Shown here in pieces: positions 1 to 205 of a stretch of DNA of 205 nucleotides (the stretch's first letter is position 1; each line of letters starts with the position of its first letter). The stretch lies in assembly GCF_003334785.1 (NCBI RefSeq), contig NZ_QOWV01000097.1. One strand, given 5' to 3'. The stretch comes from Escherichia coli. GTDB taxonomy: Bacteria > Pseudomonadota > Gammaproteobacteria > Enterobacterales > Enterobacteriaceae. Under the pieces are notes generated by a model. That model had not been told where the DNA came from and did not search any database. It saw only the letters and a program-made list of their open reading frames with translations. The translations under genes were made by a program, and so were the position numbers.

Positions 1-205
1 AAGTCGTGTCTTACCGGGTTGGACTCAAGACGATAGTTACCGGATAAGGCGCAGCGGTCGGGCTGAACGGGGGGTTCGTGCACACAGCCCAGCTTGGAGC
101 GAACGACCTACACCGAACTGAGATACCAACAGCGTGAGCTATGAGAAAGCGCCACGCTTCCCGAAGGGAGAAAGGCGGACAGGTATCCGGTAAGCGGCAG
201 GGTCG
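1..205 (+). other. ori: ColE1/pMB1-type (pUC-like) plasmid origin of replication, internal fragment; replication proceeds left to right in this window
   Basis: Seen in sequence: near-identical over the whole window to the pMB1/pUC ori as I recall it (e.g. 'aagtcgtgtcttaccgggttggactcaagacgatagttaccggataaggcgcagcggtcgggctgaacggggggttcgtgcacacagcccagcttggagcgaacgacctacaccgaactgagatacc...agcgtgagctatgagaaagcgccacgcttcccgaagggagaaaggcggacaggtatccggtaagcggcagggtcg'). It includes the ApaLI site GTGCAC at 78-83 that is a landmark of the pUC ori. Established knowledge: ColE1-type replicons are primed by RNAII and are unidirectional. No alignment was run; identity is from memory. Confidence 0.94.
1..205 (+). 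ncRNA. RNAII: RNAII replication pre-primer, internal portion (about nt 217-421 of a roughly 555-nt transcript); both ends lie outside the window
   Basis: Established knowledge: in ColE1/pMB1, RNAII starts about 555 nt upstream of the origin and is read in the direction in which this window's + strand runs towards the origin. Positions are inferred by counting from the recalled upstream sequence (RNAI-complementary 5' region, then about 106 nt, then this window). The RNAI overlap, RNAII promoter and RNase H cleavage site are not in the window. Confidence 0.85.
60..90 (+). promoter_or_regulatory. G-rich hairpin element of RNAII: 6-bp stem gggctg(60-65)/cagccc(85-90) enclosing a loop with the G6 tract at 69-74. 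Candidate '-265' element that nucleates the persistent RNAII-template DNA hybrid
   Basis: Seen in sequence: a perfect 6-bp inverted repeat at 60-65 and 85-90 flanks the 19-nt loop 'aacggggggttcgtgcaca' containing gggggg. Established knowledge: in ColE1 a G-rich stretch of nascent RNAII about 265 nt upstream of the origin pairs with a C-rich template stretch about 20 nt upstream of the origin, enabling hybrid formation and RNase H processing. Inference: by my count the G6 tract sits about 265-270 nt upstream of the origin, which fits. Confidence 0.55.

Follow-up and report, generated by a model that had tools for sequence, protein, structure and literature searches.

Our results suggest that the A at position 128 of the window (the whole stretch of 205 bp analysed here), which lies in the context ctgagataccAacagcgtgagc, is very probably a common natural allele of the RNAII region of the ColE1 plasmid family, and not a mutation of a pUC origin. 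An earlier note on this DNA had described the base as a T-to-A change from the canonical pMB1/pUC origin. The direction implied by that change is not supported: ColE1 has A at the site and, with the 60 flanking bases identical, records with A exceed those with T by a factor of 7 to 11. Moreover, A is present in those lineages of the GATACC type that were the most diverged of the sample, and the intact 205-mer occurs in dozens of natural plasmids. Note that the polymorphism is already known in substance, since the sequences of ColE1 and of pMB1 derivatives have been publicly available for decades, and it brings no new biology; comparisons within the ColE1 family were reportedly made by Selzer et al. 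in 1983.

The window (positions 1 to 205, plus or sense strand) is a non-coding piece from the middle of the ColE1-type primer transcript RNAII, located past the 5' part complementary to RNAI and before the origin. It is identical to ColE1 (NC_001371.1) at 203 of the 205 positions, to NTP16 (NC_002090.1) at all 205 and to a pUC57 derivative at 204. Homology to the RNAII region of ColE1 was also evident in more than 4400 matching PLSDB records, chiefly mobilizable small enterobacterial plasmids. In ColE1, NTP16 and the pUC57 derivative, RNAI (RF00106) was detected upstream on the opposite strand, scoring 73.7-83.7 bits (gathering score, 47), and it ends about 86-110 nt before the window begins. 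In the pUC57 derivative (locus L004), the minus-strand RNAI match spans 2388-2492, and the coordinate of the variable base is 2728. ColE1 has its rop gene downstream, on the minus strand. The presence of RNAI upstream on the opposite strand and of rop downstream on the minus strand indicates that the plus strand of the window is the sense strand of RNAII. In a ColE1-type origin, the RNase H processing site and the RNA-to-DNA transition are expected about 200 nt further downstream. Past the window-equivalent, the sequences of loci L002 and L004 continue as in ColE1-type origins, and in NTP16 both RNAI and the origin site accompany the identical 205 bp; the window itself comes without flanks. 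It contains a run of six G residues (cGGGGGGtt, positions 69 to 74, plus strand), conserved in nearly all the relatives sampled and unaffected by the variant. We take this run to be the G-rich segment located about 265 nt upstream of the origin, which reportedly contributes to the persistence of the RNAII-template hybrid (Masukata and Tomizawa, Cell 1990).

To number the site, the start of RNAII was set at the G after the TTGAGA-17-TAATCT promoter; this start is inferred, and agrees with the RNAI match at 2388-2492. Counted in this way, the variable base is nt 345 of RNAII in pUC57 and nt 347 in ColE1, in line with the nt 344 or so previously given for it. RNAI covers only nt 2-110 of RNAII (PMC5043065), and the site lies about 236 nt past the RNAI-complementary stretch, so its placement outside the part that interacts with RNAI was also correct. 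The scan of the window against Rfam (E<=1) returned no family, as expected, since the Rfam RNAI model spans just the 5' part of the transcript, upstream of the window.

Coding and regulatory readings of the segment were rejected. The window has a 30-amino-acid open reading frame on the minus strand (37-129), present because the A allele gives a minus-strand TTG (127-129) where pUC has TAG. This frame had no NCBIfam family match, and no gene is annotated over positions 98-158 in the PLSDB or E. coli complete-genome records matched by a 61-mer centred on the site. Neither strand of the window contains a sigma-70-like promoter or a terminator-like site. As a separate observation, a short minus-strand frame within window positions 1-83 (728-886 in locus L001 and 870-983 in L002) is named 'replication initiation protein' or 'hypothetical protein' in many RefSeq records, and it also lacked an NCBIfam family match. 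The name 'replication initiation protein' is probably a spurious, propagated annotation; ColE1-type plasmids use no plasmid-encoded initiator (PMC5043065).

Two pUC-type origins served as references: that of pUC57_IS26_blaKPC, a plasmid from a laboratory MG1655 strain (L004), and that of a plasmid of the shuttle-vector type from Clostridium, which carries a TEM-116 bla gene and ble (L005). Both have T at position 128, and this is their sole mismatch to the window in 205 bp (204/205). Thus, the claim that pUC-type origins carry T, which the earlier note had made, is now borne out by the sequences, as is the claim that a single difference separates the window from pUC; pUC references showing A, an outcome that the note had allowed for, were not found. 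Upstream of the window-equivalent, L004 has the TGTTCTTCT form, presumably the pUC high-copy change. In a full-text literature search with an 18-mer around the site, which matched 46 papers, the plasmid sequences printed in the 15 papers listed all had the T form and none had the A form. This is expected if the plasmids that get printed are pMB1-derived vectors.

The frequencies of the two alleles were obtained with the 61-mer, which has 30 identical bases on each side of the site, so that one mismatch puts a record under the 99% identity band. Exact matches in PLSDB numbered 775 records for A and 112 for T, and those in the E. coli complete genomes 583 for A and 54 for T; these are counts of records in redundant databases, not of independent lineages, and are conditional on identical flanks. 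The complete 205-mer with A was found at 100% identity in at least 40 PLSDB records and at least 40 E. coli complete-genome records, among the matches listed in each case; by rank in a spread listing of the matches, the perfect E. coli records number between about 29 and 56. The identical 205-mer was carried by small plasmids, whose hosts include E. coli, Salmonella, Shigella, E. albertii and E. fergusonii isolated from human, animal and food sources. The T version of the 205-mer was perfectly matched by only 12 E. coli records, several of which are laboratory constructs, including the MG1655 laboratory construct and its chromosomal insertion. Note that T is also a true natural allele, since it is carried by ColJs from Shigella sonnei and by loci L007 and L010. 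Viral contigs, scanned for the exact pattern with any base (N) allowed at position 128, contained no match.

Many of the T-type PLSDB records come from Bacillus, Clostridium, Acetobacter, Mucilaginibacter, Stenotrophomonas and similar hosts, and these hosts suggest shuttle vectors or contamination. We also observed pUC-type T origins in PLSDB 'plasmids' of Psychromicrobium, Mucilaginibacter, Ruficoccus and Stenotrophomonas; the records with T origins include NZ_CP022428.1, NZ_CP011006.1, CP014772.1, NZ_CP080650.1, NZ_CP090424.1 and others. The first of these (Pantoea ananatis, 34.6 kb) has 16 copies of the T 61-mer. Such records in unrelated hosts resemble contaminating vector sequence, shuttle vectors or assembled concatemers, not natural plasmids. 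Separately, positions 800-1004 of the PLSDB record NZ_CP027176.1 (Pseudomonas aeruginosa, 1350 bp) are 100% identical to the window. Both the host and the size are unlikely for a ColE1-type replicon, and this record may be a fragment or a contaminant.

We then considered the polarity of the polymorphism, using 21 loci that were fetched across the identity range and aligned. Among the GATACC-type sequences, A is present at 128 in ColE1, NTP16, L008, L009, L011-L015 and a chromosomal relic (L006), and T in the two vector origins (L004 and L005), ColJs, L007 and L010; neither G nor C was found at the site in the GATACC-type sequences sampled. The A group includes diverged lineages (L009 and L011-L015) with 83-92% identity to the window. 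Since the most diverged of the GATACC-type lineages sampled carry A, this base is probably ancestral and T derived, as judged from a small sample of a freely recombining family.

ColE1 is like the window in having A at 128 and the same helix and domain around it. The two differ at positions 4 (G in ColE1) and 9 (C in ColE1), both of which are T in the window, as in pUC and NTP16. This mix of states at positions 4 and 9 and at position 128 is a small mosaic, ordinary for the ColE1 family. NTP16, from Salmonella Typhimurium, shows no difference inside the window, A128 included, and small Col-type plasmids of E. coli, Salmonella and Shigella (for example those of 3319, 6822, 7559 and 8274 bp) are likewise identical over the 205 bases. 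The RNAI/RNAII 5' region of NTP16 is, however, quite unlike that of ColE1 or pUC. Since the 205 bp are common to replicons that differ in their RNAI regions, the source replicon is not deducible from the window.

The chromosomal relic mentioned above is a side observation of our search. It is a 109-bp remnant of a ColE1-type origin that corresponds to window positions 77-185 (6001-6109 of L006; 1276138-1276246 of the APEC O2-211 chromosome, NZ_CP006834.2). It is 93.6% identical to the window, carries A at 128 and is flanked by IS elements (ISVsa5 and ISL3) on one side and by the pic autotransporter gene on the other. The A-form query matched 234 places in E. coli chromosomes, compared to 74 for the T-form query, and from this difference the relic appears to be present in well over a hundred chromosomes.

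One alternative is that the window derives from a laboratory vector of the pMB1/pUC lineage in which a new T-to-A change arose, either spontaneously or by PCR or synthesis. The window is one base apart from the pUC57 origin, and at positions 4 and 9 it agrees with pUC and not with ColE1. Moreover, vector sequence is a frequent contaminant of assemblies, and in 205 bases without flanks a mutated pUC-derived vector would look identical. We nevertheless consider this origin very unlikely. NTP16 and dozens of clinical, animal and food plasmids carry the same 205-mer, positions 4 and 9 included, so no new mutation is needed to obtain it, and A is the majority allele in both record collections. Of the features of a vector origin, T at 128, the one inside these 205 bases that separates pMB1/pUC vector origins from natural A-type origins, is absent from the window, and the identity elsewhere (204/205) is non-discriminating, since natural plasmids match at 205/205. 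The marks of a vector backbone (bla, lacZ-alpha, the pUC point change in RNAII and absence of rop) all fall beyond the ends of the window. Thus, because ColE1 has A, because A is in the majority and because the unchanged 205-mer is present in dozens of natural plasmids, a natural ColE1-family plasmid is more likely than a mutated pUC vector as the source. From the options that the earlier note had offered, natural variation is the one that stands; a mistaken reference, new mutation and sequencing error become unnecessary.

As regards the structure of the region, we folded with ViennaRNA the full-length RNAII of pUC57, NTP16 and ColE1, 420-nt versions from NTP16 and ColE1, and the window alone. 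A six-pair helix, formed by GAUACC (122-127, plus strand) and GGUAUC (182-187, plus strand), was predicted in every context folded, and both arms also appear in the RNAalifold consensus. Position 128 comes directly after the 5' arm, towards the inside of this helix, and it faces an invariant A (position 181, plus strand), which is predicted to pair with U in the T allele and to form an A·A mismatch in the window. In these folds, U128 makes a seventh pair, U-A with A181, with a probability of 0.82-0.90; this pair is absent with A128. The comparison of folds with and without the change that the earlier note had proposed thus showed alleles that differ by the 128-181 pair only: the minimum free energy structures differ just at positions 128 and 181, by 0.9 kcal/mol in all contexts. 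A large refolding of RNAII by either allele was seen in none of the contexts folded and is rejected at the level of thermodynamic prediction.

In support of the predicted helix, RNAalifold analysis of 11 distinct ColE1-type sequences gave the same branched domain, with 128 unpaired. This multi-branched domain of RNAII (104-205, plus strand in all its parts) is predicted to comprise the outer helices 104-109/200-205, 113-115/195-197 and 117-120/188-191, and the inner hairpins 132-140/148-157 and 158-162/166-170. In the consensus structure, 96.1% of the cells are paired, versus 33-45% when the partners are slid, and in four pairs both partners have changed. Of the 11 distinct sequences, 4 have U-A at the 128-181 pair (29-85 of alignment A2), and the other 7 leave it unpaired. 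Compensatory changes of the kind that a conserved RNA structure should leave were found in the consensus pairs and also in the p15A-like plasmids, which have GUGUCA/UGACAC at the helix: four of its six pairs are altered on both sides, and all are Watson-Crick. The p15A-like helix was counted by explicit motif extraction, because the MAFFT alignment set its 3' arm out of register. Therefore, the 122-127/182-187 helix is real and conserved, and the seventh pair is optional, not conserved.

The L004 and L005 vector origins have the same structure as the window, to which T128 adds the U-A pair with A181. ColJs (NC_002809.1), compared over window positions 100-205 only, has the same six-pair helix with T at 128, and a few further differences near the 3' end of the window. 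The p15A-like ColRNAI replicons (L016-L020 and L022), whose GUGUCA/UGACAC form we take to be the p15A type, keep window positions 1-122 at about 90-94% identity and have the helix at the same place. In these replicons, the base equivalent to 128 is G and the inner-side base is also unpaired (G·A or G·G), and the enclosed domain is 34-35 nt long, versus 52 nt in the window. As a side observation, many of the plasmid matches from Klebsiella, Enterobacter and Salmonella stop at about window position 122; these are the p15A-like group. Matches that end at about 122, together with the shorter p15A-like domain, place the site at the edge of the most variable central module of RNAII.

RNAII is made by the host RNA polymerase, folds and forms a persistent hybrid at the origin, where RNase H cleaves the RNA and so supplies the primer for Pol I; binding of RNAI to its first 110 nt or so alters the RNAII fold and blocks priming (PMC5043065). 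Applied to the window, RNAII would be transcribed through it, fold, hybridise at the origin and, once cut by RNase H, prime DNA synthesis, and RNAI would act only on those first 110 nt, with position 128 far beyond them. A128 would be the first base inside the helix that closes the branched domain, facing A181 and remaining unpaired, and the T128 of pMB1/pUC, ColJs and some others would add one terminal U-A pair. Because the alleles are predicted to fold identically apart from this one pair, A versus T would most likely have no effect, or almost none, on primer formation and copy number, a judgement based on folding at equilibrium and on the fact that both alleles coexist in successful plasmids; note that such folding is equilibrium thermodynamics, whereas RNAII function depends on co-transcriptional folding. 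In the literature on ColE1 RNAII mutations and structure, no paper on base 128 was found by title or abstract, and no copy-number data for the site.

Another possibility, separate from the natural-allele reading and compatible with it, could be that the A/T difference is functional, with the U-A pair altering the folding kinetics of RNAII or primer formation and so tuning copy number between ColE1-like and pMB1-like replicons. The site adjoins a conserved helix with covariation support, and T occurs in several sequence backgrounds (pUC/ColJs, L007 and L010), which could reflect recurrence or recombination. In addition, single-base changes far from the RNAI region reportedly affect primer formation (work attributed to Masukata and Tomizawa, 1984 and 1986). 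Against this, the predicted effect is one terminal pair worth 0.9 kcal/mol, with no rearrangement in the contexts tried. Successful natural plasmids maintain either allele, position 181 was never seen to change in a way that would let it pair with A128, and the p15A-like plasmids are likewise mismatched at the equivalent site. Functional tuning is therefore very unlikely in our opinion, and it is highly improbable that the pMB1 T allele contributes measurably to the efficiency of primer formation or the copy number of vectors compared to ColE1-like replicons with A. If this were true, position 128 would be a natural site at which RNAII folding is tuned to a small degree, and its T allele is in nearly all cloning vectors.

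Finally, that the A is a sequencing or assembly error over a true T is hardly credible, because the error would need to recreate by chance the commonest natural allele at the exact site, in a 205-mer found unchanged in at least 40 records of each collection.

The importance of A128 as a natural allele of the ColE1 family is small, and its practical weight is in attribution. A stretch of 205 bp that resembles pUC with one mutation is identical to the same region of many wild ColE1-family plasmids, and such a stretch is not to be taken as vector contamination or as a mutant vector. Although some natural plasmids carry T, base 128 may help to tell natural A-type origins from pMB1-derived vector origins when assemblies are screened.
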